Origin: Pseudogymnoascus verrucosus
Taxonomy: Eukaryota
Length of the DNA: 64,000 bases
Strand: one strand, 5' to 3'
NCBI GenBank assembly: GCA_001662655.1
Contig: KV460280.1
Shown here: positions 14,616 to 56,125 of the stretch, one piece after another
Numbering within the stretch: position 1 is the stretch's first letter
Layout: each line of letters starts with the position of its first letter
Position numbers and translations under genes: made by a program
The notes under the pieces: generated by a model
Seen by the model: only the letters and a program-made list of their open reading frames with translations
Told to the model about the DNA's origin: nothing
Databases searched by the model: none

Positions 14616-16440
14616 ATGCCTACGAAGTCTACGTATGTGATACCGAAATGACCTATCTTCACAGGTGAAAGAGCATGCTAACAAGATTGGAGAACAACAG
14701 ATTTGAAGATGTTAACATTCCCTTGGTGGACGTCTGGACGTTCTTGTTTGAGAAACCAAGAGACTTTCCCCAAGATAAGGGTGAGTTCCAACTTGACACA
14801 TTCCTGAGTTTTGCTGACGTACAGTCATCTACACTGACCCGGTGGTTCCAAGATCGTATAGCTATAGCGACGTGAAGACCGCCACGGCTGGCTTTGGAAA
14901 AGGTTTAAAGGAAGCATGGAACTGGAACAAAAACGATGTTCTTCTGCTATACACACCAAATAGTATCGACATTCCCATTATTACGTGGGGTACTCACTGG
15001 GCTGGCGGAGTTGTCTCACCTGCCAATCCAAATTACACGACAAACGAACTGGCCATTCAGTTAAGAGACTGTGGAGCGAAAGCCATAGTTACTCAGCGGG
15101 CATATTTAAAGAATGCACGTGCTGCGGCTCAGATTGCTGGCATTCAAGAAGATCATATTATTCTCATCGGTGAGAAAAATGATAGCAATTCGGTAATCAG
15201 ACACGTCACCGACATATGCGAGTTGGGGGTGTCCCAGGGTTCCTACCATCAACGAACTATACCAGAAAACCCGGAAGCAGACCTTGCATTTCTTGTGTAT
15301 AGTAGTGGGACAACAGGCCACCCAAAAGGTGTTATGTTATCCCATGTGAACATTGTTTCAAATATCTTGATGTTGAAGGCTGGAGAGGGAGTGAATCTCA
15401 GCTGGGTTGGCGGTCATGATAATAAGGGCGACCGGATTCTCGGCTTCCTGCCTTTCTATCATATCTACGGTAAGTGTTGATATTAGATCCATGGTTTCAA
15501 GGCTAAACTGTTATAAGGACTCACTTCGCTCGTTCATCAGGCAATCTACAACGGCTTGGAACTGATTGTCATGACCAAATATGATCTGGAAAAGTTTTGT
15601 TCCAATATCCAGGAATATAAGATCACCTTGGCCTACGTTGTCCCACCCGTCCTCCTCCAGCTTGCAAAGGATCCCAGTATCGATCGTTTTAACCTGAGTT
15701 CTTTGCGGATGATGAGCTCTGGTGCAGCTCCATTAACAAAAGAGCTAGTTGAGGCGGTTTACCAGAGGCTCAACGTTCCGATTAAGCAAGGCTACGGGCT
15801 CTCCGAGACATCTCCAACCACCCACTCACAGCCTTGGGACACCTGGCGCACGTTTGTTGGCTCCGCTGGTATACTTCTCGCCAATCAAAGCATTAAATAC
15901 ATGTCGGAGGATGGGGATGAGCTGCCAGCTGGCGAGACAGGAGAGCTTTGGATTAAAGGTCCAAATGTTTTTAGAGGCTATCTAAACAACCTAGAAGCTA
16001 CGCAAAACGCCTTGACAAGTGATGGCTACTTCAAAACTGGCGACGTGGGGCATGAGGACAAGCATGGAAACTTATTCATTACAGACCGCGTCAAAGAACT
16101 AATTAAGTATAAAGGTTTTCAAGTTCCACCAGCAGAGCTCGAAGGAAAATTGCTCGGCCACCCGGAGATTGAAGATGCTGCGGTCGTTGGCGTTTACAGA
16201 CCCGAACAAGCTACAGAGGTACCAATGGCGTATATTGTGCTATCAAAGGGTAGTCTCGGTGATGCAGCAAAAGAAAGACAAATCATGGAATGGCTAAGTG
16301 CGAGAGTGGCGAACCATAAGCGTCTGAGAGGTGGCATTGAATGGATCGATGAAGTGCCGAAAAGCTCCAGCGGGAAGATTCTGAGAAGAGTTTTGAGAGT
16401 TCGCGCCCAGAAGAAGAAGCTACCATCAGCAAAGTTGTGA
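14616..16440 (+). CDS. 4-coumarate/phenylacetate-CoA ligase-like adenylate-forming enzyme, PTS1 (-AKL)
   Basis: YSSGTTGHPKG, QGYGLSET, FKTGD, DRVKELIKYKGFQVPPAELE, PKSSSGKILRR. Ends SAKL*. Confidence 0.93.
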
Positions 16441-32608: not shown

Positions 32609-32622
32609 CATTACTCATGCCT
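32609..32622 (-). promoter_or_regulatory. AGGCATGAGTAATG, Yap-type variant site upstream of the DUF1446 gene
   Basis: Identical 14-mer at 38102-38115. Contains the Yap1-type core TTACTCA. Confidence 0.62.
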
Positions 32623-33120
32623 AGTTTCCAAGCCAGGCGCACGGCCCACGTGGTCTATGCAACCCCTATGCCGATCTCCGCTTCACCAATTAATGCCATT
32701 AGGCACCTCAAAAAATCTGCCTCAACAATATGCCGAAGGCCGTTTGTCCACGCAGAGTGCATGGTCCAGCTTAAAACCTAATGCCAGGAGCACCAATCCC
32801 GTTGCCTTCCCACCATGGAAATTTAATCCCTACCGCCCTTCTAGGCATCATCATATGCGACTTGAGCGGCCTGGACCTGCACTTCCGCGGGGTATGGAAG
32901 ACTGGCGCCCTGGCACAACTGATTCAATACATACCAGTGCTAGAAAGCATGACCGCCACTCTCAAGGTTGGAGAAGCGGGATTGCAGTATGGAGGAAATG
33001 TGTTTGGAACGGCACCGGTCGGATTTTGCCCATCATATAATGCTCATTCCCCCCATATATTTGTCTCAATCCTGTAAATCGCACCCGACTTTCATAATAG
33101 TCCCATAAGTCTTCTACATT

Positions 33121-35150: not shown

Positions 35151-35866
35151 TAACTGGCATTTAGAGGAAGCGTGGGTAGGGCGGGCTGTTGAACTAAGAC
35201 GGCCGAAGAGTGGCTGTCTGTGTGTGATGTGCCGTTATGTAGAACGATGAGAATGTATCACAATGAAGCATTTTTGTTGTTTTTGTGTCCTTCTTAGGGG
35301 AAGGGAGGAGAGTCATGTTGCCACCGAGAATGTATCGCAATGATAGTGAGGCACTTAATGGTCAACCCGCTAGATAAATTATCGATAATTGCGAGATTTG
35401 ATATCCTAGCGTATATCAAAGCGTACGGGGAATACCAATGTTACAAGTGCAAAATATGATAGGATACGCCTATAATTGCGCATCTTCAGTGGTTAATCAT
35501 CCGATCCGACGATTGCCAAGACAGCTACATGAACCCCGCACTAACCCCGCACACTAGTGCCTCTCGATTCCTTGTCCTGTCCCTTCCCTAGATTGAAGAT
35601 CAACATAGCTTTGAAATGCTGCAGTGTGTAGACCTCGAAGGTGCGACCTGATGGTATACAATACAATACAACCCTCCATGATCGTCTGCTGTTTCCGAAA
35701 CAGCCACGAAAACAGAACACGGCTTTGATAACCGTCATTCACCACTCGTCGGCGCTGTATTTCTCTACTGCCCAAGTTCATTAGCAAGGGCCGAGGTCGT
35801 TCCATGACCTGTGGGCGCTCATCGTACGAAACACATAGATCACATATCTCATACAAATAACAGCAC

Positions 35867-37847
35867 ATGGATCCTAATATGCACAGTGGCAATGGCCATC
35901 GTTCTGATCCTTCCCCTTCCACATCTGTTTCTCTTGCTACTACGTCCAAGCGGCGCGTCAGGACTGTCTCTAGCCTCACACAGGAGCAGGTTCGCAAGAA
36001 GCGCGACAATGACCGCGAGGCTCAGCGCGCATTCCGAGAGCGCACCAAGATGCGCATCCACGTGCTAGAAGACGAACTTGCGGCGCTTAAGGCAGAGCGT
36101 CGAGAGCTCGAGGGGTCCAAGGCGAGCGAGCTCCAAGTCTTGATTGACGACAACAGGGCTCTCAGGAGTCAGATGCAGAGGCTCACGCAACTTGCTCGCC
36201 CTCTGATGTTGTTGCTGGCTTCCAAGCCTGACGACGCCGCGGATGGGGTGGATCATGTCTTGCAACCCTCTCCAGCTGGCGACAATCCGACGGGAAATTC
36301 TAGCGCCACCCATGCCGTGACCGATGGTCTCGTCGATGCGACCAAAGCCTGGCCATCACCTAGTACGCAATCAAATATGCAGTGCGCAGCAAAAGAAATC
36401 GAAGGCACACGGCCACATCCTTCCCAATGTTCATCGCAATATAACGCAATAATGACACCGACGTCAAATGTCGTTCGAGAACATCAACAGCAAGGATGGT
36501 TTCGAGTTAGAAACAATGATCATGAACGACACGCTATGGGGAACATTGCCCAGGATGTAGATATGGGCGTTGAGAATCAAGCCGCTGCCCAAACTTGCGC
36601 ATATACGGAATCAATGCCACAAAGTGCTGGGTTTTCACCATCCGGCAATGATTACGTAGCTCAAGACGACCGATCATTCACGTCAACGACACGCCAGCCA
36701 CAAGAGGACACACGCTACGGTATTGCGACGACAGATGGATCTCATGACCCTCATATCACTTACTATAATGGGTTCAATAGTAGGCAGCCTATAGCAAACC
36801 GAGATGCGGACTGTACGTCAAGCAACACAAGTCTAGTTCATGCTTTAAGTTCCCAACACTCAATCTCCCCTGGATATCGAGATGCTGAGAGCGGTAACTA
36901 TCCACTGTACCTATTCAAGTAGATATAACATTAACGACTTCTATTTAGTTGCAGATGATTATCTCGATGGAGTGATGACAAATATGTCCTCGTCAAAAAA
37001 CCATGCTGCTCCTCAAGGTCCAACGGTGTCTAGTAACTCAACAATCCCGCCGTTCACTTGGGCGCATCCTGAACCAAACAAAAATATTACAATGTCTACT
37101 ATACTTCCGAAGCATATGGAGGCTACGTGTCCACTTGATCAGATTCTCCTGGATTTTCTAACTTCCCGGAGGCTTCTTGCAGCCCAAGGAACACCAGCAT
37201 CTGTATTAGTTGGACCTCTAAACCCGTCGATAACGGGCCTAGTAAACCCAAGTTTCAAGGGCTCGGCTCACGCTGCAATTCGAGTGATGGCAGACGTTGT
37301 CTCTACATTCAAGGATACCAAGCTTCAGGAGCAGTTAGGATTCTTTTATATCATGTACTCTACTATGCGGGTGAGTCCAGGCCCCTTCCTTCCATTCTTG
37401 GATGAAGTATCTCATATGGCTCTTGCGTAGTGGCAAATCGCCCCTACAGATGAAACATTCGAAAGCCTCCCATTATGGCTACGCCCAACTATTTTCCAGG
37501 TCATAGTTCCACATGCAGCCTGGATAGACAATATACCTTGGTAACTACGCTCAGCAGGATCGTTAAGCCGTGTCTCATTATTTTTTAGGCCCCGGATTCG
37601 AGATCTTCTGATACAAAATCCAACAAAGTACACCTTCCGCGATTTCTCGGAACTATATGCCAGCAACGTAAACCTGAACTGGCCATTTGATGCAGCAGAC
37701 GCAGTAATGCCAAAGACAGACAGTAGTGGCGAACTCATGATGAATCCATTATTTGAAAAACACATACGAAAACTAGAGTGCTGGTCCGTCAGCGAGCCGT
37801 TCAAAGAGCGGTTTCCTGAATTTGCTGCAGCCATCGAGGATAAGTAG
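35867..37847 (+). CDS. bZIP transcription factor with C-terminal DUF3425-like domain
   Basis: Basic region RKKRDNDREAQRAFRERTK plus Leu heptads. C-terminal TCPLDQIL, LPLWLRPT..Q..VPHAAWIDNIPWP. Confidence 0.87.
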
Positions 37848-38101
37848 GATCTCACAATTAGCTTGTGGAGGCACGACCCCAAATACAGCGCAAACCGTTG
37901 GTCCCGAGTCCTTACATGATGTAGTTTTAGACACTGCTAGCTTAGTTTTCAAACACAGTATAACACCTGGATTAAATCGAGGTTGGGATTTGGCCGACAG
38001 CCCTTTCTTTACATGGCACTTATCAAGTTAGATCGCACACGATTAGCCTGAAATTCATTCTCACAGCGAATAAATCGGGTTTACGACCTTGTCGAATATT
38101 G

Positions 38102-38115
38102 AGGCATGAGTAATG
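38102..38115 (+). promoter_or_regulatory. AGGCATGAGTAATG, Yap-type variant site upstream of OYE
   Basis: Identical to 32609-32622 on the reverse strand. A second CATGAGTAATG lies near 38366. Confidence 0.62.
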
Positions 38116-38534
38116 ACATTCCACCGTGCCGCCATCCACAGTGCGGGGTAGGCTAGGATTAAATCGGGCAGTAGCCGGCCAGTGACGTATGTGTAAAAGA
38201 TAAGCTTTTAAGAGTGCTCAGCTTTCAATGAGAGACGGTGTACAAATATTAGCCCCTAACGAAATGTCAGGGGAAACGGCTCGGTTGATAATCGTCGTGA
38301 CCAACTTTTCGCTTCGCGAGCCGGTCAGGACGATTATCCTTTGCTTACAAATTCAATCCACACGCCATGAGTAATGATAAAAGAAAAGAATTAGGGTAGT
38401 TGATAATGATTATTAATGAACATTGAAGTAATCTCAAGCCCCCTTCGATAAAGAGATGTCGACGAGTACGAGCACTTACCTTCTTTAAAAAGGACGTCCT
38501 GGCAAAAGGGTTATCGACATTCCACATCGCCGCC

Positions 38535-39635
38535 ATGTCACCACCACTCTCCTCGCCCATGCGAATCGGCAATTCGGAGCTGAAGCACCGTGTTGTCATG
38601 GCACCCTTGACCCGATACCGTGCCGATGAGAACCACGTCCCTCTGGAAATGGTCGTGGAGTACTACGCACAACGGGCTTCAGTTCCTGGAACTTTAATCA
38701 TCACCGAAGCCACATTCATAGCACCAGAAGCGGGCGGCTTCTCCTGTGCGCCAGGTATATATAACGATGCTCAAGTGCAGGCGTGGCAGAAGGTCACACA
38801 AGCCGTCCATGCACAGGGCAGCTTTATCTATTGTCAGCTTTGGGCTCTTGGTCGCGCAGCAAAGGCTGATATTCTCAACGCCGAAGGATACAAGGTTGTG
38901 TCTAGCAGCAACATCGCGATGGCCAAGGACGCAGCAGTTCCCGAGCCACTAGACGAGGACAGCATCCAGGCTTTTATTGGCTACTACGCCAGCGCTGCCA
39001 GACGGGCCATCGAAGCTGGCTTCGACGGCGTTGAAATCCACGGCGCTAATGGGTACCTGGTCGACCAATTCTTGCAGGACAAGTGTAACAACCGCACTGA
39101 TGGGTGGGGCGGCAGCATCGAAAAGCGCGCGCGCTTCGGCATCGAAGTAGCTGCTGCGGTGTCCGCAGCCATAGGATCGCAACGAGTGGGCTACAGAGTA
39201 AGCCCCTATAGCCCCTTTCAGGGCATGAAGATGGACGACCCAGTGCCGCAATTCTCGTATCTGGCTACGGCGCTAAAGAAACTCGACATTGCTTACCTGC
39301 ATGTTGTGGAATCGCGCATCTCAGGCGCGGGCGACATCGAGGGTACCGAACAGGTGGACTGGCTGATTGACCTCTGGGGAAGCGGCAATGCCATCATCCT
39401 CGCGGGTGGCTTCACCTCGGAGTCAGCAAATGAGGCCATTAGCAAACACATTGACAAGAAGATCGCGATTGCCTTTGGTCGCAATTTCCTCGCCAACCCT
39501 GATCTGCCGTTTCGGATTGCGGAGAAGCTGAAGCTGAATAGCTACAACCGGGCCACGTTCTACGTAGAGCAGTCCCCTATAGGATATACCGACTACCCTT
39601 TTAGTCCGGAGTTCAAGAGTGCCGGTGCGGCATAG
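38535..39635 (+). CDS. Old yellow enzyme (NADH:flavin oxidoreductase / ene-reductase), intronless
   Basis: MAPLTRYRA, YYAQRA, QLWALGR, EIHGANGYL, FGRNFLANPDL, GYTDYP. Confidence 0.95.
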   Translation: MSPPLSSPMRIGNSELKHRVVMAPLTRYRADENHVPLEMVVEYYAQRASVPGTLIITEATFIAPEAGGFSCAPGIYNDAQVQAWQKVTQAVHAQGSFIYCQLWALGRAAKADILNAEGYKVVSSSNIAMAKDAAVPEPLDEDSIQAFIGYYASAARRAIEAGFDGVEIHGANGYLVDQFLQDKCNNRTDGWGGSIEKRARFGIEVAAAVSAAIGSQRVGYRVSPYSPFQGMKMDDPVPQFSYLATALKKLDIAYLHVVESRISGAGDIEGTEQVDWLIDLWGSGNAIILAGGFTSESANEAISKHIDKKIAIAFGRNFLANPDLPFRIAEKLKLNSYNRATFYVEQSPIGYTDYPFSPEFKSAGAA

Positions 39636-40498: not shown

Positions 40499-41341
40499 TT
40501 ACAGTTTGCTTGCCACCCATTTAGGCTTTCTCTTCTCTACAAATGCTCTCACACCCTCCTTCATGTTCTCTCCCTGGTTCATTCTTGAAAACCATTCTTT
40601 TTCGAGTATGCGGGTGCCCTCTTCGGCGCTCACACCTTCCCATCCCATCTTGATCCCTTCGCGAGTCACAATGACGCTGTCGGGGCTATTGTCTGCAATC
40701 ATGTTGGCCAAGCGAATTGCTTCAGCAACCACCTCACTGCTAGCTCCTTCTCCTCCACTGCCTACAACCCTATTCACAAGACCCCATTCAGCCGCCTCTT
40801 GGGCGCTCACTGTCCGCCCTGTAAGTGCCATCTCCATGGCGCGTGGACGGCCGATAATCCTCGTTAACCTTGGCAGGGCTCCGGCCGTAGCAACGACGCC
40901 ACGCTTCACCTCGGGCAGACCAAAAACCGCCTTTTCGCTTGCAATGGTCATATCACAGTTTATGATCATCTCGCAACCGCCCCCAAAGCAAAGGCCATTT
41001 ACAGCAGCTATCACAGGCTTCTTCCCTCTCCGCTGTGAAAGCCCACAGAATCCCTCGGGGGGGGTTTTTTTGACCTGCCCCTTTGCATTGAGTTCATTCC
41101 ACTCCTTAAGGTCACCACCAGCACAGAATGCACGCCCAGCGCCCGTGATAACTGCGCAACGGAGGGATGGCTCAGAATCCAGCCAACTAAAAAGAGCCGT
41201 CAACTCCTGATCTCCTCTCGTGCCAATGCAATTAAGGACCTGTGGGCGGTTTATAACGACGAGAAGGATATAAGGATTCGGGAACGACACTAGAGCATCG
41301 GCAACCCTTGGAGGAGGAGTTGCAAAATGTGGCTGCAACAT
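40499..41341 (-). CDS. Enoyl-CoA hydratase/isomerase (crotonase) family, PTS1 (-SKL), intronless
   Basis: AFCAGGDL, AAVNGLCFGGGCE, FGLPEVKRG (both catalytic Glu). Ends ASKL*. Start is uncertain (41341, 41383 or 41677). Confidence 0.92.
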   Translation of the reverse strand: MLQPHFATPPPRVADALVSFPNPYILLVVINRPQVLNCIGTRGDQELTALFSWLDSEPSLRCAVITGAGRAFCAGGDLKEWNELNAKGQVKKTPPEGFCGLSQRRGKKPVIAAVNGLCFGGGCEMIINCDMTIASEKAVFGLPEVKRGVVATAGALPRLTRIIGRPRAMEMALTGRTVSAQEAAEWGLVNRVVGSGGEGASSEVVAEAIRLANMIADNSPDSVIVTREGIKMGWEGVSAEEGTRILEKEWFSRMNQGENMKEGVRAFVEKRKPKWVASKL

Positions 41342-42067
41342 TATACTGTTCCTTGTTGAAGGTAATGAATGCCCCTCACTCATAAGGGTGGTTAGGGTGC
41401 TGGTGCTGAGACAAGAATTGTTATGGCGTGCACGGGCTGAACGAGTGCTAGTTTCTCCAAGTAACCAGGGGATATGAGAAGATGAGTCAACTTTTATCTG
41501 CGTGAGCTTCGAAGTATATAGCGAGTATTCGATAATAATTTCTGGAGTGTTTGCAGTGGGGTTCTCGTAGGGCGCTAGTAACCTCGGCCGCTGGCAATAC
41601 TTCACTGATGACAACGCTAAATCAAGGCTTAGTAGGTGCCAATTAGCGCGCGATTGGTTTCGGAATTCAAATTCCATTTAGTATAGCCCCCAACTCTATG
41701 CTCCTACCCCGCTATCCCCCCACTTTAACGTGTTGCATCGCGGAGAAAGTTCCGTGTCATGCGGAATACAAGGGACATTTGTCCAGCTTAACTGAAGATC
41801 ACATTTCGGGATTTAGTCGGCGATGGTAAAATGCAGCCTTAATCCAAAGTAGAAAGTAAAGAAGCCGACGAAAGTGAACTTTATGCCCTTTTCTTCCTGC
41901 AGTCTTTACTAACATGTATTCATAGCCAAGGGAATACATTGAAAAGTTATACCTGGCCCGACTAGATCAAGAGACTTAAGCTGGCACATTCCCACCAGAA
42001 TCAGAAGATAGATCTCCTGTCAACTTACCAGATGTCTGAACTTGCAACTCTAAATTATACGAACAGA

Positions 42068-43436
42068 ATGTCCTTAATCACCACTCCAGCCACTCGGATG
42101 CTTGGCATCACGCAACCCATCCTCCTCGCTGGTATGGGATACACGTCCGGCGCTGAGCTCGCCGCTGCTGTTTCCAATGCGGGGGGGTTGGGTGTCGTTG
42201 GTGGCTTAGGCTATACCCCAGATGCGCTGCGAGAGATTCTTACAGACCTTAAAAGCAAACTTCGGGACCCGTCGCTGCCATTTGGTGTTGACCTACTAAT
42301 CCCACAAGTTGGTGGCAAGGCGCGGAAAACTAACGTTGACTACACCAGAGGACAATTAATGGAGTTAATTGATATCATTGTCGAAGAAGGAGCAAAGCTT
42401 TTTGTGTCGGCCGTGGGCATACCCCCGAAGGCCGTTGTTGATAAGCTACACGCAGCTGGCGTATTGTACATGGTAAGTAATTTTCATCCTGTGTTCGGCG
42501 ATCACACAACTGACATTCTGCGTATGTAGAACATGGTCGGACATCCAAAGGTATAATGTAAATCGAGCAATTCATATCACCTGTTTTCTAATAAATTTAT
42601 TAGCATGTCCACAAAGCATGTGAAGTTGGCGCAGATCTGGTTTGTGCTCAAGGCGGAGAAGCAGGGGGTCATACTGGGGAGATCCCAACCAGGTACGTCC
42701 CTGGCCACGCTCTAGGTTCCTTTTTATGTTCCTTAAACTAACTGTTATAACCAGTGTTCTAATTCCAGCTTGCGCTGATGCTTGCAAGGGGTACGTGTCA
42801 CCGCTCACCGGAGAGCCAGTACAACTCGTCGCCGCTGGAGGTATGTTTGATGGTCGGAGTATTGCTGCGGCCCTTATGTATGGTGCTGGAGCCGTTTGGG
42901 TCGGAACTCGGTTCGTCACCGCAAGAGAATCAAACGCTCCTGAAGGTGGCAAGCAGGCGTGAGTAACATATTCAACCTATCATCGCGTTTATATTGTAGA
43001 CTAACAACTTTTTCCTTCTCTCAGAATTATCGATGCCGGATTTGACTCGTTTGTCAGAACAACATTATGGAGCGGCCGCCCGATTCGAGCAATGGCAACA
43101 CCCTATCTCATCGACTGGGAGACGAATCGCAGGGCTGAAATCAATGAGCTTCAGAGTAAAGGCATCATTGTGTTAGATTACGAGTTAGAGAGGTTAGAGA
43201 AGGAGGGAAAGCTAACTGATGAGATCATTGACCAGACAACACAAAGGTAAAACATCATCATGCTCTTTTTAAGGGCTTAATGCTAACGTATCTGAATTAG
43301 ACCTATGGGATATGGAGCATCGATGGTAAACAAAAAGAACCAGACTGCTGCAGAGATAGTGCTGGAAATGACTGTTGAGGCATACACGATCCTAAAAGGA
43401 GCAGATCGGTATATTAGCTCTGTATCAAAGTTATAG
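42068..43436 (+). CDS. Nitronate monooxygenase / FabK-like FMN oxidoreductase, PTS1 (-SKL), multi-exon
   Basis: PILLAGM, AAAVSNAGGLG, AQGGEAGGHTG, AAGGMFDGR, VWVGTRF. Last exon ends SSVSKL*. Confidence 0.9.
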
Positions 43437-43713
43437 AGCTTCGAAAGGCTAGGATACACCAACGATTGTCAGAATACATCATTATTGGCTTCACTCAACT
43501 ATTATGAATGAACATAAATTGTCGTATTATCTATGCATGCCAGTTCCGAATTTTGCACTCCGACAAGTGTGCTGTTAGACACCAAGCAGTCTGTTACGAG
43601 GCATTTTAGCCAAGGTACCCCACGCTTCAGTGTACAACATGGGGTACAAGTAGTTCCTGTGTTCCTACTTAGTGCCAAGCTTTGAAAGGGGTAGCGGTGC
43701 TTCGAGGCACGGG

Positions 43714-43868
43714 TGGTAGCTTCGCGGCACTCCCCTGTCAGACAGCCGCAAAACCCAATTATCTGAATGAGCGGTTCCTCTCGTACTGAACTCAATTACC
43801 ATTGCGATGACGGTCATCAGTAGGGTAAAACTTATCTGTCTCACGACGGTCTAAACCCACCTCACGTT
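43714..43868 (-). pseudogene. Degenerate 28S (LSU) rRNA fragment including the sarcin-ricin loop
   Basis: Minus strand reads AACGTGAGgTGGGTTTAGACCGTCGTGAGACAG..TTTTACCCTACTGATGA..AGTACGAGAGGAAC..CATTCAGATAATTGG..GCCGCGAAGCTACCA, matching the conserved 3' part of LSU rRNA with substitutions. Confidence 0.92.
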
Positions 43869-44255
43869 ACTATTCCTTAATACCGACCTTAGCTGAGGCA
43901 TTTCCTCGACAGCTTGCGGCCCGGAGGCTCGCGGTCTCTTGATTTGGGGTGTGCATCACCTTTTTCCCAAACGCAGGTTCAATCATGGCTATAGTTACTA
44001 GTCTAGGCATAGTTTTAGCATGCTCATGGTAGATATAAATTATGTATGTAGCATACCGTTTTCCTTTTAATATGTATAAAACTTCCAGGTTAGCAAGTAT
44101 CCAGCAGACTTAATGTGCCAATAACAGAACAACGTAAATAAACGGCGAGTGAACAATGTAAAATCAGGGTCAAGATATATTTTGATTATTTGACTATATT
44201 TGTCTTGCTAAATGTAACTCAGTGGGTTTCTTGCTACCTTACGCGTTCTTCCCCC

Positions 44256-46076
44256 TTAAAGAATATATCTAAAAAGGGGGCTGCGATCTCCCATTTCCTT
44301 TAGTTCCTGCTCGGTATACTTGCTATGAATCTCCTCTAAGGACATAGCGTCGCGCTCTTTGTTGATCTTGTTCAGTTTCCATCGGAGGAAGATGGCAGCA
44401 AAGAAAGCCATGGTAATCACCGCAAGCGAGACCCCATAACCTGTCCAATAATGGGGTGCTTCCTTTGAGAGATAGATGTTGGATCCGACCGCTCCTCCCA
44501 TGCCGCCGATGGATATTTGCAATGCCATGCCGATCGAGCGCTTCCACGATCCGGCGAGGTTGTTTGCTAGGACCTCATGAGTTACGGCACATATATCAAT
44601 CAAGGGAGATTAAGACCCACCGTTCCAAGAGATTACTCCGCAAATTAGGGGATACAGACCGCCTGCCACAACAAATAACATCCCGTATGTTGCGCCTGGC
44701 ATTCCAGGGTGTGGCAATGATAGAAGTCCGATATAGCCTATTGCAGCGACGATGCATGGATAGATGATAAAGTTAGAGCGAGACTCGTAGCGATCGGATA
44801 AGAAAGCCGCTAGTATAGTAACGCTCAGGGCAAAAACATAAACGGGGATGGTCAGTAGTTGGGCATTGGCCGCACTATAGCCTAGTTCCGTAATGACGGA
44901 AGGTAGGGTGTAGATAAATCTATTACTTCTATCAGTATCTGCTCATTAGGAGGCTAGGAGGGAACAAGGAGCTAGAGGCTATAAATATATCATACCCGTA
45001 AGTAGAAATTGCATTTCCCCAGTAGATCAGAACAGAAATGTAGATCTTCCAGTCTGTCAACGCATCTTTCATGTACTTCCACTGAAAAGGCTCATTGGTG
45101 TCAACCTTGCCGGATGCACCACCGTTGTCGCTCTTGAGTCTCTCGATCAGAAACGTTCTCTCATCAGGCGTTAGGAACGTTGCCGTTGCAGGGCCGTTGG
45201 GCAGAAAGAAAAAGCACGCAAATCCGACGAGAACAGTAACGAGCCCTTCAAGCATGAGAATCCTTGCGTATGTCAGCACGTATATCACCACTTTCGCAAA
45301 ATAAGAGCCACTCTTCGCCTTACCATTGCCACCCAGCTAAGTGAGCGATACCATGCATATAGTTGATCCCATAGGCGAGGAGCCCTGAGAACGCCCCAGC
45401 CATAGACCCAGCTGAGAAGAAGACGGACAATCTCCCCTGCAACTCAGCGCGTCGGTACCAGCAAGTTAAAAGGTATGTAGCCGCGGGGAAAAATCCGGCC
45501 TGGAAAAGGAATCATACATTAGCAGAGCAAAATTCTATGTGGAGAAGGAGACCACACGGACCTCAGCGAATCCGAGGAAGAAGCGTGCTGCTAGCAAGCC
45601 TTTGTAGTTGCTGACCAATGACATTAATGTCATGCAAGTGCCCCAGCAGACGACGAGGATCGACACCCAGAGGTTTGCAGGCAAAAGCTTGAGCACCACA
45701 TTGCTAGGAATCTCAAAGGCGCAATATGGGAAGAAAAAAATAGTGAGACAGATGTTCCACTGGGGGCCTGATAATCCCAGGTCTTTCTGCATGCCCAGAG
45801 TGCGAGCGTTTCCCACTGTTTGTATGATTAGGTAAAGTACAAGCGATGGTAATTGGAATAGCATGTCTTACTGTTTCCTCTGTCTAGAAAAGACAGGAGA
45901 TACAAAAGTGTTAGACACGGTAGAAGCCGCATATCAACCTTGCGAAGGATTCGCTTAGATTCCACTTCATCGTAAACAATGGTAGCCTGCTCATTCATCG
46001 AAGAGGCCTTCTCACTATCTGTAGCCCCCTTGCACTCGACCTGGTCGACGTGAGTCGACTCTTCTCCTTTACTCAT
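44256..46076 (-). CDS. MFS anion:cation symporter (Dal5/Tna1-like carboxylate permease), multi-exon
   Basis: LRKVDMRLLP, SFLDRGNIGNA-type motif, EIPSN, RFFLGFAE, GDRSPLFRY C-terminus. Confidence 0.92.
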
Positions 46077-46304
46077 AATCGCAAAGACACGTATTAGAGT
46101 AATGAGTTGTAATTAATAGACGGATCTCAAGGTAGAACTAGTCGGCACAGAACGAAGATAGGATTCTTATGTTTAAAATCTAAATCGAGGGTTCGCGGAA
46201 GTTGCTTTAGTATATACGTTCTCGTACGATATGCTCTAATCTTCGCGATATATTGAATCTATTGGATGATGCATCTTGAATAACTTTTCCATAACTGGTA
46301 CATA

Positions 46305-46385
46305 GTGGGGCCTATAGAGTGTGGGGTAAAATCCGGGGTTGGCACCATGATTGGCGGGACTGTAATCCCGAAGTGATTTGCGGGG
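46305..46385. promoter_or_regulatory. Four SYGGRG (CreA/Mig1-type) boxes upstream of the carboxylate permease
   Basis: GTGGGG 46305, GTGGGG 46321, CCGGGG 46333, GCGGGG 46380. Confidence 0.5.
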
Positions 46386-46924
46386 ATCGATGGCATGGTC
46401 AAAGTGCAAGTAATACTCCTGACAAACTTGATCGGAATGCCGTAAACGCCAGCAAAAGCAAAATATTATGGAGTATCCAACTTACCTGAAGTGACGTCGC
46501 TGTCAATTCCAATATTGACCCGCCTAAACGAAATATAAGGATCCCGGTATTCGATGATTGGGACTCGGCGCAACAGTTCCATATGGGCATGATGCAAGTT
46601 TGTGTCGCTAGACAGCGTAAGATCCGCCAATCTCCGAGCCTTCTTATTGCAATGAATATCAAATCGTTGCAACATGGCATACTTCTCCGACCTTCCGAAA
46701 TTGTTATCGTTCGTTGCTTTGACGCGACAGCCATACACTAGTCAAGGTTGGATTGAATCCTGCGTACGCAGATCATAACTGCTTATTTAATCCGGAGAAA
46801 AGTCTAATACAATAGTATCAAGCGAATCACACATAAAAAATCCAGTTAAACAGAATATGCAAGGTTTTGATGCAATTGAGTTATTGTGACTATATACAGA
46901 GAGATAATCGTTACCGCACTGTAG

Positions 46925-48866
46925 TTACAATTTTGTAATTTTCGCAAAGCTGAATAGATTCCTCCCCTTCACATCAACACACTGCCGGATAAAGCCGCTT
47001 CTTCCAATCTGCTCTTGGGTTGTATTTGACAACTCTTGAAGTGTTGCAGAGTCTGCATGGTTTGCAATGATTCGATGGCCATTGCTTTTCAAGCGACATA
47101 CAACATAGCCCTTGATGGGCTTACCATTCCGATCGTGCTCAGCTGTGTACGTCTAAAAGTTGTTAATGCTCTGCATTTAGGTATCCCTGTATTATGGACA
47201 AGAGGCACCTACTTCAATAGTCACTGGACCTTCAGCCTGTTCGTCGAATGGTGGACATGGCAGTTCAGCTGGAGTTTCAAGAAGAGCATTGTCTTGCGGA
47301 TATGGTAACCCGTCTTGTCTTGGCCTATTCGAGAGGCAAACTGTGTTCTCGTAACTCAATACTCCGCCATTTGCTAAAATGAGACCGTTGCGTCTAATGT
47401 GCGCTGATCTTAGTTGCTGCACCATTTCGGCAACAGCCTGTGTACACATTAGATGCGACCTCGACAATACGACAGAAATAACTTACGTGCATTGAATAGT
47501 TTGCTCCCGCTCCGCCAAATGAGGTCAACCCTCCCAGCAGCGTAATAGGCTTCACCCAATTCGTCTGAGGAATCCCAAGGTGCTCGCAGGCTAGCTTTGG
47601 AACAATTGGGAAACATCTGCTGTTCAGTTAGGTGACCCAAACCTCAAGGAAAACAAGGGAGAAACGGACGAATAAAAATCAAACATATCGATAGCCTCCT
47701 TTGTCAGCCCAGAGTTTTCCAGACCTGAGTCTAGGGCCTGTGATATAGCAGGGCTAGAGTAGTAATTTGGCCTGTTATAGACTGAAGTGATGAGCGTGAT
47801 TAGCAAGACTTCATGCCGACCAAATGGAAACCATACAATCCTCACTATCCCTCGCCCAGGCTCCTCCTAGTGGATAAACCCACTTTGACTTTGGGATGCC
47901 TAGCTTTTCAGCATGCTCGGTTGATGTGACAATACATGCCGCTGCGAGATCGACGAATGGCATCGCATTCATTAGGAGAGGGTCCGGAATTAAGGTCAGC
48001 TTATTATCAGGCTTCGTTAGGGATTCTTTCCTTACAGGGCGAGTAGATAATTCGGTTCCTTTCAGATATTGTGCCAATTGTTTCTTCCGTCTCCGTCTTC
48101 TCGCCATAGCTCCAGGCCCTGGGATGCTTTTCGGCAACTTTAGCAAATTCGCCATACAAGGCTGCTGACTCTTTAATGTTCTCCGTATATGACTGGTGGT
48201 GATGCGCGCGAAACCCAGCCTCAAATAGAGGGTACACCTGAATTGGAGTTCCAATCGTATGGATCCTGCTCGTACCTGTATCGCTCATTAGTCAAGTAAA
48301 GTTTAGAAGTGAGCACCACTTGCCGTCAAGGAGATCAACGGCGTTTGGAGAGTACAAGGTATTTATATCTTGCTTTGGTTTAGTCCATCTAGGCGGAGGA
48401 AACTTTTTAGCCTTTTCAAGCTTTCTCACTATGTATCCAAAATATTAGCAAGGGAAATGGTCTGGGTGGGACAGATCAGATCTTTGGCCGACGTACGTGA
48501 AGCTAGAGTTTCGCCCCCAGTCATCAATGCCACTTTACTCTCGCCTGTGACAATGCGCCGTGCCATGTCATTGAGCAACTTCACCGGCTGGTTGCCCATG
48601 GTGGGGGTGTAATGCTTGTGTTTAGCATCAACACCAAGTCTCTCTGACACTAGGCCAGGCAGATCATGATATGGCCATGTTGAACATGCAACGACGTCAA
48701 TGCTGTCAATATCCGACTGGAGTCTTTGCGAGTTTATAGGCGATAGATTGCAGTCAATTAATGACAGCTTAATTGCCTCGAGCATCAGGTCTACAGGCTC
48801 AACGGAATCTTGTGCGGCCTTATTCCTGACATCCCCAACTCCAATGATTATAGGTGTGAAACCCAT
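46925..48866 (-). CDS. Thiolase-like protein (TLP1-type), PTS1-like end (-TKL), multi-exon
   Basis: TPIIIGVG, MGNQP, GGE, YPLFE, VDLAAACIV, DFYSCFP, GGLTSFGGAGANYSMH, LANGG. Ends ITKL*. Confidence 0.85.
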
Positions 48867-49491
48867 TTCACTTGATAAACGTACTATACGGTTCAAAACG
48901 TCGCAATTCTAGTATATCAAATTATACATTTGTAAATAGTAAAAGTTCGAATATAAGTCGCGGAATTTCAACATCACCGAAAGAATTTGGCGAGGGAATA
49001 TAACACGCTAGATGTAGCGATGGTCGGTCGGGTAATAATGCGGGGGAAGATGATGGGGAATACTATGCCGGCTATCTAAATCGTACATGAAAAATACAAA
49101 TTTATCGCCCTGGTATGTCCTCGATGTGAGAGTTCATGGAAGTTGACTTCCGTGGACCGAATAGGAGGCGACCTGCACGATGTCGGGGATCCTCTACAGG
49201 GTACCCCTCTTCACAAAACCCTAAGTTCTCCAATTAGTCTTAGCTTTTGCATGGATTATGTGGATCATGAACCCCGCAGGATGGACCCACCGCATGAACC
49301 ATGCGGGATAAATCCGTTTGAAAAAGTATAGTAATACTGGTACATGCATTGGGCGAAGTGAAAGCTAGAAGAAGGGAAATGGGGAATGGCCGTTGCCCGT
49401 ATTATAAGGTACTAAGCTGCCGTCGGTCTGTTCAGTAGCCATCTGCGAGTAGATTTTTTCACGGTGCTACCATCATTTATTTGCTCCCAAT

Positions 49492-51320
49492 ATGGCATAT
49501 TTACCCTGGAGAGATATTGAGTTGCCTGAGATAGACTTGGTCAGTCTGGCCTTTGGTAAGTCAATGGGAAAAGACAGCACGATCATACAAGATTTCGAGG
49601 AATATGGACTTACTGAATACCGGCAGATTCACCTTATTCATGGGCCAACGATGCGACCATCCTCCACGTTGATGCTGCGGACGAAACCAACTACATTAAC
49701 AAATCCCAAGCGAGGACTATTATTAAACGCCTGGCATATGTGTTACGCCATCGATTTAACGTTGGGAGCGGTGCATTATATCAAGATGTAGTAACTTGCT
49801 TCGCATCCAACCAGATTCTTCTTCCTACAGTGTTCTTTGGGATAATTGCAGCCGGCGGCGTCTATTCCGCGGCATCTTCGTCCTTGACTCCCTTTGAGTT
49901 GTCGAGGCAGCTCAAGACGAGTAAAAGCAATTTAATCATTGCCAGCAAAGATTCTTTAGAAGTGGCGCTTAAATCTGCGAAAGAATGCGGCATTCCACTA
50001 GATAGTGTCCTGGTTCTCGACAGCGCAAGACACCAGAGGAGTCTGAGAGATACGGTTCAGCCAGAACGAAATTACCTACAAGCTACAAACGAACTAAATT
50101 GGGCTAGGCCCACCGACTTGGATACATTGGAGAAGAAGCCAATATGCCTTATGTTCTCCAGCGGGACGACGGGCCCGCCGAAGGGTGTAATGCTGTCGCA
50201 CAAGAACATTGTGGCCCAGAGCCTCACTTGGCAAGCAACGTTGCGTGATTCCCTAAACACCGCGAAGGTTGCTAAAACTGGCAAAGACCCGAAGAACTTT
50301 AAGTATGGGATCGTTGCTCACCTCCCAGCCGCCCATGTTGCGGGATCGCAGGGTTATTTTATGAACGGGATGATGGCGGGCGGTGCTACGTTCTGGATGA
50401 CCAAGTTCGTTCTTGCCGACTTCCTCCACTACACCAAAAAGTATCGACCTACCCACATGTTGAGTGTGCCGTCGATTTATCTACAGATTATCAACAGTCC
50501 AGATGTCACTGATCATTTCCACTCACTTGTACATGCGCAAGTGGGTGCGGCGCCTATGGGACCGGGGTTACAGAAACTCGGACAGGAGAAGATAGGGTGC
50601 TACCTCAACCAATCTTATGGACTTACGGAGACGAGTGCATCATTGACAATGACGCCATGGTACCATAATGATACTACGGGAGGAGTTGGAGCGCTGCTCC
50701 CCAATAGCAGACTCAGAATTGTGAATGACAATCTTGAAGACGTGGTGGAAGGACAAGAAGGTGAATTTCTCATCAAGGGCCCAATCGTTACTCAAGGGTA
50801 CTACAATAACCCCGAAGCAACTGCGGCGACATTTACCTTAGACGGATGGCTTCGCACAGGCGACATTGGCCTGCGGAGGGATGGATTGTTCTATATCGTT
50901 GATAGAAAAAAGGTGAGACATAGACCAGCACAATAATCCCAAAAGCGTAAAGCTAACATATCTTAGGAACTTATAAAGTACAAGGGGCTGCAAATCGCTC
51001 CTGCTGAGCTAGAGGCATACCTACTCAGTCATGAAAGTATCCTAGACGCAGCAGTCATCGGCGTAGAAGATCCCAAGGTCGAAAGAAACGAGGTACCAAG
51101 AGCTTACATCGTACGGAAAGGGGATAAGAAATCGCGCTTGATTACAGAACAGGAAGTGAAGGACTATGTTAAGAAGAATCTGGCAGCGCATAAGCAGCTA
51201 CGGGGTGGCGTAGTTTTTGTGGATAATATTCCAAAGAGTTCATCGGGCAAGATTTTGAGGAGGGAGTTGAGGGACCATGCGAAGAATGAAAAGCCACAGG
51301 TGAGGCTGTCGAAGTTATAG
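49492..51320 (+). CDS. Second 4CL-like acyl-CoA ligase, PTS1 (-SKL)
   Basis: FSSGTTGPPKG, QSYGLTET, LRTGD, DRKK|ELIKYKG, PKSSSGKILRR. Ends LSKL*. Confidence 0.93.
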
Positions 51321-52108
51321 ATGTAGATATATCTTATAAATAAAACTACATGTTTGGATCAAATTGCCACTTGTTCCCTATAATACGGCCTGATAACAAG
51401 GTAATTGAAATTTATTTCAGATGAAGTCTACGAAATAGTCATGAATGAACGATATGATGAAGCCGCGACGGAGAGATCAAAGACAACTCAACCACATGCA
51501 ATATAGTTTGTATTTGTTGCCTTCATTCATAATCTAGTTGCCGAGGTATTCTTCATCCCATGCTTGCTAGAGTTGGAGAACTGCCATCACAAATGGTGTT
51601 TGAAATATGCTTAGGTGACTGGAATTGAATCCTTGCATAGCCTAGGCAATTCCAATGATCCTTTTCCGCTTTTGGGTTCATCACGGCAATCAAAATCGTT
51701 CGCTTTTCGAATCTTAGCATCCGGAGGTGATGTGACAATGCGCATGAACCTTGCAAATCCAGGGAACTTTATCCCGTTGGAATTACAGTGCCGATATCCG
51801 CCACTAGTAGACGATCACCCTTTCCACCATTCCCTAATCGGTTGTTGCGTTCCAGGTCTATTTCAATCTCATTTCTATGGAGCAAATGCTAGGATAGATC
51901 GAGACGCGTTTCTTTCCCTTGTCGTTGTTCGCACTACTGATCTTGTCTCCTTCAAGTACTCATACTTTTGCAACTTGAGCCCCCATTCTTCACCGAATCT
52001 TCTGCTCTATCTCGCAAGTCGCGTAATCTGTTCTTGTTATTTTTCAAGATTTCATATATACAATCTACCAGCAACCGACATATTTTGATCAGAAACATTT
52101 AAACAGCT

Positions 52109-54102
52109 ATGGAAGTGGTTATAATAGGCGCTGGACCGAGCGGAATCGCGATAGCGCATTCGCTGAAGCATAAACTTGGATTCAATAAGTTCACAGTCAG
52201 ACTTTTGAGCTTATTTTCATCAGAATTTCCCTAACCTTGATATTCAGATATATGAGAAGCTTGACGGTCCTGGAGGCACATGGAGAACGAACACATACCC
52301 TGGATGGTTTGTAAACCAATCCATTAGAACATTGCGCATGGCTAACTACTCAACTAGTGGTTGCGACATTCCAAGCCACCTATACTCGTTCAGCTTTAAT
52401 CTCAACCCCGATTGGAGCAAAGAGCTTTGCGACCAACCGGAAATTCTTGAGTGTTTGTGGCTCCATCATGGTCTAGTGACGAAATATTGACGATATCAGA
52501 CATGGAAGCGACGGTGGACAAATTCAATTTACGGCCCCATATGCGATTTGTGACTAAATGTCTTGGGGCACAATGGATCTCGAAAACTAAGAAGTGGGAG
52601 ATTGAACTCCAAGACATGATAGGCAGGAAATTCACAAAAGTAGCCGACATTTTCATCAGTGCCGTAGGGGGTATATCAGAACCCCGAGATGTCAAATTTC
52701 CTGGCATGGAGAAGTTCCAAGGTCCTATCTTTCACACTGCACGATGGGATCATTCGTACGACTACGAAGGAAAACGAATGGCAGTGATTGGAAATGGCTG
52801 CAGCGCGGCTCAGGTTGTTCCAAATGTGGTTCACAAAGTCCAGTATCTCAAACAGTAGGCATAACGTTTTGCCCTGCGCAAGTACTCATACTGACACCGC
52901 GATTTTAGATTTGCGCGGAGCCCTCAATGGTACCACGAGCGCCCCAATCGAGAATTCTCCAAGCTAGAGAAATTCTGCTTCCGCTATATTCCTCTCTGGC
53001 AAAGATACCATCGTCTATCCCTCTTCACGGGGAATGATGCTCTTGTCGAGACTTATGGGGCAGGAGAAAAGGCCCAGCGAGTGCGCACAGCTACCGAGTA
53101 TGCTGCAAGGAATTACATATATGAGAATGCACCAGAGAAATATCACCATTTCATCGTCCCTGAGTTCCCCCTCGGTAAGATGCCTTCTCATATCAAGCAT
53201 AGCATGGCACTAATTACACAATGTAGGATGTAAACGCCGTATTTTCGACCCTGACTATCTTTCGGCCTTGCACGAGGAGAGTATGAGCTTGGTTGATGAA
53301 GGGATTAGAGAGATTAACGAAGCGGGCATTACTAGCGAACGAGGAACATACGAGGAGTTCGATGTCATAGTTCTTGCGACTGTAAGAAAAAAACTCTATT
53401 ACATGGTCAGAAGCTAATGCCAGGCAGGGTTTCAAGGTCTCAGAGTTCCTGACCCCGATGAAGATCGTGGGGCGGCAAGGCAAAGAGCTCTCAGAGCAGT
53501 GGAAAGAATCCGACGGTGCTCAAGCATACTATGGAACTTACGTGCACAATTTCCCTAATTTTGCAATTCTGTAAGTTTTTTAAATGCTCTGTACAGGAAA
53601 TGTTTTAACACAGTGAAGCTTTGGTCCGAACTCGTTCCCGGCCCACAACTCTGTTATTTTCGCAACGGAGGTTCAAGCGGCATTCATAGTCAAAAGTCTT
53701 TTTACACCTATCATGAACAATCGTGCATCGATCATAGAGGTCAAACAAGAAGCAGAAGATAGTTTCACTGCAGGCGTGCAATCACTTCTTAGTGGTACTG
53801 TCTTTAGTGCAAATTGTTCCAACTGGTATATCAACTCCAAGGGAAAGAACTCCGCTTCATGGCCCGGGTATGCGTCTACATTCTGGCGCGAGACATTTTT
53901 CCCTCGCTTCAAAGATTTCAAGCTTGAAGGTGGCTCCACACTCTGGTGGCCGAAGTGTATTGTGCGATGGTTGTTTACGGGACTATTTAACACGTTGCTC
54001 TCTCAGCACACCATGACATTTCTACTGGCCTTTGGAATTATCAAAAGGGAGCGAATTCTGCAAGATATCGCCAAGCTTGTGCAACGGGCACAGGCGCGAT
54101 GA
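52109..54102 (+). CDS. Type I Baeyer-Villiger monooxygenase, multi-exon
   Basis: IIGAGPSG, GGTWRTNTYPG, BVMO fingerprint FQGPIFHTARWD, VIGNGCSA, ATGF. Confidence 0.92.
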
Positions 54103-54828
54103 GAGATAACTCAACAAGAGAATTCGAGTAGATATGTTGGGCATTCGGTCATTTGTTGAGTCCAAGGAGATTACCTAGTGTACAAAGGGCATTCCATTCT
54201 CGCTGGGTTTTCGCTGGCATAGATTAGAGAAATAGAAGACTTCGCTATTTCGCGACCAAGGCTGATCGAACTGAAAGTGGCGTTTGTGAATATCGTCAAA
54301 CATTAGAACTGATTTCTTGTTCGTGCAAGCACTTCTCAACCTCTCTTCTGGACAGCGGTTCGGTTCCGCTGTGTGAAGTACCAGCGACTTAAAAACCACC
54401 CTGATATCTACGGAACTCGATTTCCGAGATTATATTTGGTTTACCTACCACATGCTGACCCACAGTTTGTTTGCGCTACCTGAGGTATCCCACCTACGTG
54501 ATTTCGCGGGGCAAAATTCTTATTATGAGCGCGGTTTAGCTCTGGCCGTCAACAACCCCGCGATTTATTCTGATATGACTCGCAGGTCACGTTGGCTAAT
54601 TCTATTATGTTGCATTCTGATTTACGACCGAGAATGCAAGGGGAAGTGGGGCGGGGCCTGCCTGGAGAGGACGATAAGAAAGGCAATGGGAAGGTTGACA
54701 ACTCCGCTATGATTGATCGCACTTTCACGGTGAAATATTACCCACTGAAACTCTCATAAACACCGAATAGTCACCAAACTTCGCAAAGGCACGGACAGTT
54801 GCACAGCTCCACCTCCTACCTCAGGGCC

Positions 54829-56125
54829 ATGGTCTACATTCCTAAGTCGACCTTTGTGGTAGATGTCCGATTGATCAACACAACGACAGATGTCACCGTA
54901 AAATCAGGTGACCTACTGCAGCCAGAACTGAAAGGACAAGACACCCTCTATCTCCCCACTTTTGCCTTCTTGATCCGTCACCGGGCCTCTGGCCGTTCTG
55001 TTCTATTCGACTGCGGATCCCGCAAGGACTGGAAGAACTTGCCTCCAGCTATCGTCCCCTCTGTAGCAACTTCCGGGGTCCACATAGAAAAGAGCGTTGA
55101 CGAGATCCTCCTAGAAGGAGGCCAAGACTTAAATGAGCTCAGCTCGATTATCTGGAGGTAGTTACCGAATTCTTGAGCTATGATCAAACCATCACTGATA
55201 CGTTAATTTGGCAGCCACTGGCACTGGGATCACATTGGTGATGCAAGCCGTTTTCCTAAAACCACTGAGCTCGTGGTAGGACCAAACTTCAAAGAGAATT
55301 TCATGCCGGGATACCCTACAAAAGAGGATGCACTGTTGCTAGACTCTGATTTCGAGTAAGCCTCCATCGAGCACTGCCTGCCTGGGACTGACGAGCTGAC
55401 ACAATTTATAGAGGGCGCAATGTACGGGAAATAAAATTCTCCGACGATCTCCAAATTGGAGGCTTCCCAGCCCATGACTTCTTTGGGGATGGAAGTCTGT
55501 ATCTGCTCGATGCCCCGGGTGTAAGTCAATTTGGTGCTTCCCACTCTCTCGTTTCCGCTGACAGATTTATGTTTAGCACGCGGTTGGTCACATCGCCAGC
55601 CTCGCTCGCACCACGTTCAATACATTCGTCTTGTTAGGCGGCGACTCATGTCACTTCCCTGGTGTATTCAGACCTTCGGCACATCTTACGCTCCCCTCGA
55701 CAATTCCATCTACTGTTCGGATGGACGCTCGGTTCCCACGCCCCTGCCCTAGCTCCTGCTTTACCAGCATTCATCCAGTGCAAGACCAGGCCTCCTCCAC
55801 GCCCTTCTACAATTTGCCACAGGCCAAGGGGGGGTGGTATGCCGATCCGCCCCGCGCACAGGAGAGCGTCACGAGCCTCTCGGAGTTAGACGGGGACGAT
55901 AATATATTAGTCTTGATAGCACACGATATGGCGATGTTAGAAATTAAGGAGCTGTTCCCGAGGCATAATATCAATGCCTGGAAAGAGAAGGGCTGGAAGG
56001 AGAGATTTGCATGGAGTTTTTTGAATGAATTGCCCAATGACGCTGGGAAGGCGAGGAGGGAGTTTGAAGATGCGGAAAGGTTGGATATCAAGAGTCCAGA
56101 TAACGAGGATTGGAGATCGAGGTAG
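54829..56125 (+). CDS. Metallo-beta-lactamase-fold hydrolase (lactonase/lactamase-like), 4 exons
   Basis: FDCGSRKDW, SHWHWDHIG (HxHxDH), PGHAVGH, GGDSCH, AHD. Confidence 0.9.

Follow-up and report, generated by a model that had tools for sequence, protein, structure and literature searches.

A predicted peroxisomal acyl-CoA gene cluster in Pseudogymnoascus verrucosus with a thiolase-like protein of the TLP1 family as a candidate retro-aldolase

Gene organization of the cluster

The window is a 64,000-nucleotide stretch of contig KV460280.1 of P. verrucosus, in which spliced models built from the window coordinates give a module of five open genes (Table 1). The hydratase and NMO-family genes form one divergent pair and the TLP1 and ligase genes another, with an MFS permease gene between them, which bears out the two pairs around a carboxylate permease described in the initial annotation. 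The C-terminal tails it had read from the letters, -SKL for the hydratase, the NMO-family enzyme and the CoA ligase, -TKL for the thiolase-like protein and -AKL for a ligase at 14616, also hold in the spliced proteins. The last of these genes lies 24 kb from the module with other genes around, and is only a candidate member. An adenylation gene of the NRPS-like kind begins near 62.6 kb. The motif used for the FarA-type sites is that given in PMC10512302 and PMC4117967.

Table 1. Features of the module and of the second ligase gene in the window
Feature	Position	Strand	Description
Second 4CL-type CoA ligase	14616..16440	+	C-terminus SAKL
Crotonase-family enoyl-CoA hydratase, SidH/EchA19-like	40499..41341	-	280 aa, one exon, C-terminus ASKL; Pfam ECH_1
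Divergent promoter region, hydratase/NMO genes	41342..42031		One CCTCGG (FarA-type) site
NMO/FabK-family FMN oxidoreductase	42032..43436	+	370 aa, 6 exons, GEAGGH motif, C-terminus VSKL; Pfam NMO
MFS permease, anion:cation symporter (carboxylate) type	44256..46076	-	503 aa, 6 exons
TLP1 thiolase-like protein	46925..48866	-	518 aa, 8 exons, C-terminus ITKL; PF18313 (TLP1_add_C), PDB 4EGV
TLP1 gene intron 3	47984..48035	-	3' end CGG, not AG
Divergent promoter region, TLP1/ligase genes	48867..49491		No CCTCGG site found
Acyl/aryl-CoA ligase, 4CL/luciferase type	49492..51320	+	567 aa, 3 exons, C-terminus LSKL; Pfam AMP-binding

The module enzymes carry three -SKL tails and one variant, the -TKL of TLP1, whose close homologue P0001 ends in SKL. 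Among homologues of the hydratase, 114/120 have a canonical PTS1 end, and those of TLP1 end in [KR]L in 100/120 cases (canonical PTS1 in 52/120). With such counts the PTS1-type tails go beyond chance, and on the strength of these predicted signals the module enzymes are very probably located in the peroxisome.

Hydratase, flavoenzyme, ligase and permease

The hydratase has both catalytic Glu motifs; its best PDB match is SidH (7OEQ, E 1e-93; the next match 1e-44), and its best NCBIfam match, below the cut-off, is EchA19. SidI and SidH, which serve siderophore synthesis as peroxisomal mevalonyl-CoA ligase and hydratase, share the hydratase subfamily and PTS1 with the module, whereas the module lies outside the siderophore cluster and has no SidF or SidD neighbours. 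The hydratase found in the siderophore cluster is instead a different paralogue on contig C10 (52% identical over the main exon), where the surrounding siderophore-type genes were identified from ORFs, so the module gene is not the SidH orthologue of that cluster. The match to SidH, the reversibility of every step and the NRPS-like gene would suit a biosynthetic unit of the SidI/SidH kind, making a branched acyl-CoA building block for a secondary metabolite by aldol addition, dehydration and FabK-like reduction. This is improbable, given the separate C10 gene, the lack of any acyltransferase or synthase within the module and the catabolic neighbours of the bacterial homologues of TLP1.

For exon 1 of the NMO-family gene, the top seven PDB rows are FabK-type sequences (E 4e-12), with nitronate monooxygenases at E 1e-7, and its C4 paralogue gives the same order (4e-24 versus 4e-14). 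When the exons were scanned singly, TIGR03151 (FabK) was the best match, at 54.8 bits and, for the paralogue exon, 104.6 bits, against a cut-off of 453. Moreover, at the position of the His-Phe pair in PA4202-type enzymes, the protein reads VSAVG, which resembles the TTGAG of FabK, and the gene is paired with a hydratase gene twice in the genome. The higher FabK-type scores, the motif and the repeated pairing make it very unlikely that the enzyme is a genuine nitronate monooxygenase that detoxifies nitroalkanes, apart from acyl-CoA chemistry, in spite of the Pfam name and the E 1e-7 matches. The enzyme has the FMN TIM-barrel family and the GEAGGH motif in common with FabK and IpdC, but its identity to FabK is low and its exon scores lie under the TIGR03151 cut-off, and its likeness to IpdC is putative. 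IpdC puts a double bond into a CoA ester ahead of a crotonase (PMC5380842). IpdC is a true precedent for the desaturation proposed in the initial annotation, which is a candidate role for this enzyme. That it acts on an acyl-CoA at the C2-C3 bond is somewhat favoured; that the enzyme works as a desaturase is possible, with the balance slightly against it.

The best PDB matches of the ligase are 4-coumarate-CoA ligases (E 2e-34), and exon 2 of the permease, the one exon compared, best matches TIGR00893 and HpaX far below their cut-offs, with galactonate/4-hydroxyphenylacetate-type carriers as the nearest relatives. The hydroxycinnamate beta-oxidation by HcsA, FoxA and KatA in Aspergillus niger shares a 4CL-type ligase, the peroxisome and CCTCGG sites with the module, whereas it employs a hydratase/dehydrogenase together with a classical thiolase, neither of which is present in the module.

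The TLP1 protein and its active-site motifs

Exon 8 of the thiolase-like gene scores 58.5 bits against TLP1_add_C (cut-off 26.1), which places the protein in the TLP1 family, and the match to MsTLP1 of Mycobacterium smegmatis (4EGV) has E 1.6e-83. The fingerprints YSCF, GGL and NGG, as defined in PMC3406046, are present. The classical thiolase motifs CxS, NEAF, GHP and CxG are absent from the protein, which has G91, YSCF, GG and NGG instead, with Gly (G91) in place of the nucleophilic Cys, and no PF00108 match was found at the gene. The TLP1 family has been shown to lack thiolase activity. With MsTLP1 (PF18313; PRK08257) the module protein shares the thiolase fold with a C-terminal barrel, the fingerprints and the Gly-for-Cys replacement; it differs in being fungal, in its PTS1-type tail and in its clustering with a hydratase, an NMO-family enzyme, a ligase and a permease.

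Y-S-C-F is near-invariant in the family and stands at the motif that holds the catalytic Tyr/Cys in Sal; by motif position, Y324-S-C326-F would fit the Tyr-x-Cys pattern of Sal (Tyr302/Cys304). Sal-Shy(DUF35) and Ltp2-ChsH2(DUF35) are retro-aldolases of steroid side chains, the DUF35 partner consisting of a zinc ribbon and an OB fold, and Ltp2 uses Tyr-x-His with a second Tyr. In fold comparison, the predicted model of a TLP1 homologue is placed beside Sal and Ltp2, and its modelled C-terminal barrel resembles their DUF35 partner. By analogy, Tyr324 may act as base and Cys326 as acid, with the barrel as a built-in DUF35 partner, which we regard as fairly probable. TLP1 is likened to Sal and Ltp2 in its putative working and is not a member of their group: its OB domain is fused and without the zinc-ribbon part, the identity is about 18%, MsTLP1 is a monomer, and neither a MaoC-type hydratase partner nor a steroid substrate was found for the module, whose hydratase is a crotonase.

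Integrity of the TLP1 copy

The 518-aa frame requires splicing at intron 3 (48035-47984), whose acceptor reads CGG, a feature overlooked in the initial annotation. Retention of the intron leads to a frameshift, and use of the next AG, 42 bases downstream, would remove 14 conserved codons without shifting the frame (residues 239-252), among them Tyr239, conserved in 129/132. The same intron ends in AG in the paralogue on G000:C37, and the database model P0001 (91.5% identical) lacks exactly these 14 residues. Furthermore, the copy shows relaxed conservation, with a ratio of 0.49 versus 0.00-0.17 for the hydratase when set against its three closest full-length relatives. These features would be expected of a decaying duplicate, in which a once whole cluster is losing TLP1 to pseudogenization and the other four genes use the C37 TLP1 or general beta-oxidation. 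On the other side, the exons have no stop or frameshift, 43/46 family-wide conserved columns are kept (including Y324, C326, Y365 and H368), the 14 codons are still family-like, and conserved sites still carry fewer substitutions (9/177 versus 34/327, p 0.045). Part of the divergence is common to P0120, a protein of Penicillium (support 0.984), so that the conservation mask may treat this subclade unfairly, and the CGG acceptor could also be an assembly error. Decay is accordingly a real but minority possibility, the chance that TLP1 is made intact from this copy is about even, and the C37 paralogue could supply the step. Decay of this copy is compatible with an aldolase function of the family.

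Classical beta-oxidation enzymes and conservation of the cluster

In a genome profile search, none of the 19 matches to Acyl-CoA_dh_1, the 4 to 3HCDH_N or the 20 to Thiolase_N lies on the contig. The absence of classical dehydrogenases and thiolase noted at first therefore stands for the contig, but the same genome encodes all three elsewhere. Intact-looking paralogues of all three module enzymes are also dispersed in the genome. The expected co-conservation of the five genes was not seen in fungi, where the cluster was found at 0/36 other fungal loci. At family level, all 12 long TLP1 representatives are fused to a hydratase, and the fusion partners are exclusively hydratases. In bacteria, NMO-family and ligase genes recurrently adjoin TLP1 genes, along with genes for P450, alcohol and aldehyde dehydrogenases, CoA-transferases and acyl-CoA dehydrogenases. 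At several of these loci the NMO gene has classical acyl-CoA dehydrogenases next to it, so the NMO-like enzyme need not replace them.

The module could be an accessory unit of ordinary peroxisomal beta-oxidation, its ligase and hydratase feeding dehydrogenases and thiolases encoded elsewhere, with the NMO-like protein reducing enoyl-CoA or serving as an NAD(P)H-recycling flavoenzyme and TLP1 binding or carrying CoA esters without cleavage. The classical enzymes present in trans, the FabK reductases as nearest structures, a Massilia TLP1 locus with acyl-CoA dehydrogenases, 3-hydroxyacyl-CoA dehydrogenase and thiolase, and the ferulate breakdown of A. niger by ligase, FoxA and thiolase (PMC10512302) agree with this. 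However, the near-invariant Tyr-x-Cys in the active-site loop of TLP1 and the exclusive fusion to hydratases point to catalysis on the hydratase product, and we consider the accessory role unlikely.

Proposed pathway and implications

We are confident that the hydratase and TLP1 act in sequence. In the proposed peroxisomal route, a carboxylic acid would be imported and converted to its CoA ester, which the hydratase would hydrate, and TLP1 would split the product by a retro-aldol reaction into acetyl-CoA and an aldehyde or ketone; such cleavage makes 3-hydroxyacyl dehydrogenase and thiolase unnecessary. That the cluster is a chain-shortening route of activation, hydration and retro-aldol release of acetyl-CoA is an evenly balanced proposition. 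The import, activation, hydration and C-C cleavage first suggested fit the evidence, the cleavage likely being retro-aldol by TLP1, apart from the missing co-conservation and a TLP1 copy that is perhaps impaired. As a tentative guess, the substrate may be a 3-methyl-branched or bulky acid whose 3-hydroxy ester is unfit for classical beta-oxidation; aryl-propionic or cinnamic acids come next, as a still more doubtful guess.

For the family, an orphan since 2012 that occurs in many filamentous ascomycetes, mycobacteria and proteobacteria, we put forward as a speculative reading that TLP1 proteins act on 3-hydroxyacyl-CoA as retro-aldolases of a single chain, to which a DUF35-like domain is fused. 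With a hydratase of the SidH type and a desaturase resembling FabK/IpdC, they might form an unrecognised, conserved bypass of fungal peroxisomal beta-oxidation, for example from 3-methyl-branched isoprenoid acids to methyl ketones, normally dispersed and here in one cluster. This proposal is independent of the intactness of the present copy, and it offers a specific and cheap test of function for a family that has a solved structure but no assigned reaction. If it is true, many proteins annotated as 'acetyl-CoA acetyltransferase' are misnamed, and fungal peroxisomes would have, for acyl-CoAs that beta-oxidation is unable to complete, a retro-aldol route hitherto described in the bacterial degradation of steroids.

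Gene organization and peroxisomal signals

In the window, which is the initial 64 kb of contig C75 in a genome of 30.2 Mb, gene models built from the coordinates bear out the proposed arrangement of five genes as two divergent pairs flanking the permease (see table), and the separate ligase starting at 14616 does have the described -AKL end, its C-terminus reading SAKL. The nearest named homologues of the window's proteins come from Pseudogymnoascus, and the source is accordingly taken to be a filamentous ascomycete. A canonical PTS1 is present in 114 of 120 hydratase homologues and a [KR]L terminus in 100 of 120 homologues of the thiolase-like protein TLP1. The cluster is a real, coherent CoA module, very probably peroxisomal. 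The genome profile search agreed with the initial annotation that acyl-CoA dehydrogenase, 3-hydroxyacyl-CoA dehydrogenase (3HCDH) and classical thiolase are missing here, giving zero matches on C75; the other contigs carry 19, 4 and 20 matches, respectively.

Features discussed (G000, source genome; L, fetched loci)
Feature	Location	Description	Basis
Hydratase	within 40499-51320	280 aa, C-terminus ASKL	spliced gene model
NMO-family enzyme	within 40499-51320	370 aa, C-terminus VSKL	spliced gene model
MFS permease	within 40499-51320	503 aa	spliced gene model
Thiolase-like protein (TLP1)	within 40499-51320	518 aa, C-terminus ITKL	spliced gene model
CoA ligase	within 40499-51320	567 aa, C-terminus LSKL	spliced gene model
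TLP1 intron 2	48323-48276 (-)	GC-AG type	
Upstream genes	30500-39635 (+)	aldehyde dehydrogenase, AtuA-family gene, bZIP-like factor, old yellow enzyme	
Genes directly 3' of ligase	52105-56125 (+)	flavin monooxygenase (FxGxxxHxxxW), metallo-hydrolase-like gene, transcription-factor-like gene, aldehyde dehydrogenase	
NRPS-like adenylation-domain gene	begins ~62600 (+)		
Second hydratase-NMO tandem	L004:4690-7200 (G000:C4)	both proteins ending SKL	
Second TLP1	L002:4740-6630 (G000:C37)	free-standing, C-terminus AKL	
SidH-like hydratase	L005:580-9900 (G000:C10)	amid genes reading like a siderophore cluster	
Sphingobium TomTYG65 plasmid	L174:9983-13515	TLP1-hydratase fusion and CoA-transferase amid oxidoreductases and monooxygenase	
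Paraburkholderia plasmid	L173:4133-13166	TLP1 with 2-oxoacid ferredoxin oxidoreductase, ETF pair, thioesterase, branched-chain aminotransferase	

The genes 3' of the ligase, among them the flavin monooxygenase with its FxGxxxHxxxW motif of Baeyer-Villiger type, could act on a ketone or aldehyde product; their co-conservation was looked for and not found. The upstream genes are suggestive of terpenoid use (AtuA, acyclic terpene utilisation), but AtuA had zero matches across the TLP1 loci.

Proposed route

By analogy, the cluster most likely functions in the manner of the ligase-dehydrogenase-hydratase-aldolase routes by which bacteria remove steroid side chains, and an aldolase-type route would account for the absence of 3HCDH and thiolase. 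It does not itself belong to these systems, since the hydratase fold differs, an OB domain is fused in TLP1 and there is no steroid link. Searches of the open-access literature turned up no publication that gives TLP1 a reaction. The ligase is 4CL-like. The nearest match of the hydratase is SidH (E 1e-93). The substrate of SidH, mevalonyl-CoA, is a 3-hydroxy-3-methyl ester, and its tertiary alcohol is not oxidisable. An excerpt of PMC3709128 places SidH in peroxisomes. The top NCBIfam model is EchA19, whose product, according to an excerpt of PMC8204306, is not accepted by the pathway dehydrogenase, with aldol cleavage suggested as its fate. The NMO-family enzyme, proposed as a desaturase in the initial annotation, is nearer to FabK than to nitronate monooxygenases, and the excerpted account of IpdC (PMC5380842) provides a family precedent for desaturation of a CoA ester. 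In five bacterial loci, however, acyl-CoA dehydrogenases adjoin the NMO gene, and the enzyme could equally well be a reductase or serve in redox balancing.

TLP1 partners in other genomes

Among 150 representatives listed, all 12 TLP1 proteins longer than 600 aa carry a fused crotonase-type hydratase; that of Cladophialophora, with a hydratase part 46% identical to ours, looks like two neighbouring fungal genes merged. P0332, a protein of 991 aa, joins START/polyketide-cyclase domain, TLP1 and hydratase in a single chain. The 160 loci fetched (best 80 of 576 plus best 80 of 569 matches) were sorted by identity and introns into 124 bacterial and 36 fungal ones. Co-conservation of the five genes in fungi did not hold among these best matches, another cluster gene occurring in 0/36 fungal loci. 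In the 124 bacterial best-match loci, a hydratase was found in 20 (six fused), a similar ligase in five and an NMO-family gene in 12, against 2-4 expected at 1.5-3 per Mb, although p-values exaggerate this excess, the loci being mutually related; CoA-transferases, acyl-CoA dehydrogenases, short-chain/alcohol/aldehyde dehydrogenases and P450s were also frequent. Nine of 11 plasmid matches were inspected, and six came with annotation: a Massilia plasmid has the NMO gene divergent from ligase-TLP1-hydratase-hydratase, a Methylobacterium plasmid has ligase-TLP1-hydratase, two sphingomonad plasmids have a TLP1-hydratase fusion followed by a CoA-transferase, and two have TLP1 with no neighbouring hydratase. 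The TomTYG65-series strains are, we assume, tomato glycoalkaloid degraders, and the Sphingobium locus is a possible substrate lead. The Paraburkholderia gene set hints at branched acyl-CoAs.

State of the TLP1 copy and its paralogues

Intron 3 of the window TLP1 gene terminates in CGG, and the homologous intron of the C37 paralogue has a canonical AG acceptor. Retention would cause a frameshift, and use of the next AG an in-frame loss of residues 239-252, exactly those missing in the database model of a 91.5% identical homologue. The protein deviates at 29 of the 189 columns that are conserved in fungi, where the median is 4, and has a conserved/variable substitution ratio of 0.49, versus 0.00-0.21 in 49 other pairs; compared with the three full-length relatives nearest to it, the hydratase looks normal. 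On the other hand, the TLP1 copy retains 43 of 46 family-wide conserved columns and every motif residue, and it groups with a protein from Penicillium in a subclade that is divergent as a whole. The chances that this copy is made intact appear evenly balanced.

The C4 NMO is about 65% identical to the window enzyme over the main exon. Two CCTCGG sites (a motif from excerpts of PMC10512302 and PMC4117967) lie upstream of the C37 TLP1, and five upstream of this gene and the C4 pair together, versus 0.8 expected from the window background. The neighbours of the C10 hydratase, named from ORF reading, we take to be an acyltransferase ending AKL, ABC and MFS transporters and an NRPS end. The C4 and C37 genes all end in PTS1. 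Given these tails, the upstream CCTCGG sites and the 0/36 result in fungal loci, the hydratase, NMO and TLP1 genes probably form a set that is dispersed in the genome, with a duplicate in the window that has been combined with ligase and carrier. The C37 TLP1 is the better assay candidate. We tentatively suggest, as a possibility with the odds against it, that the TLP1 family are 3-hydroxyacyl-CoA retro-aldolases, which together with a SidH-like hydratase and a FabK/IpdC-like desaturase may constitute a conserved, dispersed peroxisomal bypass in fungi.
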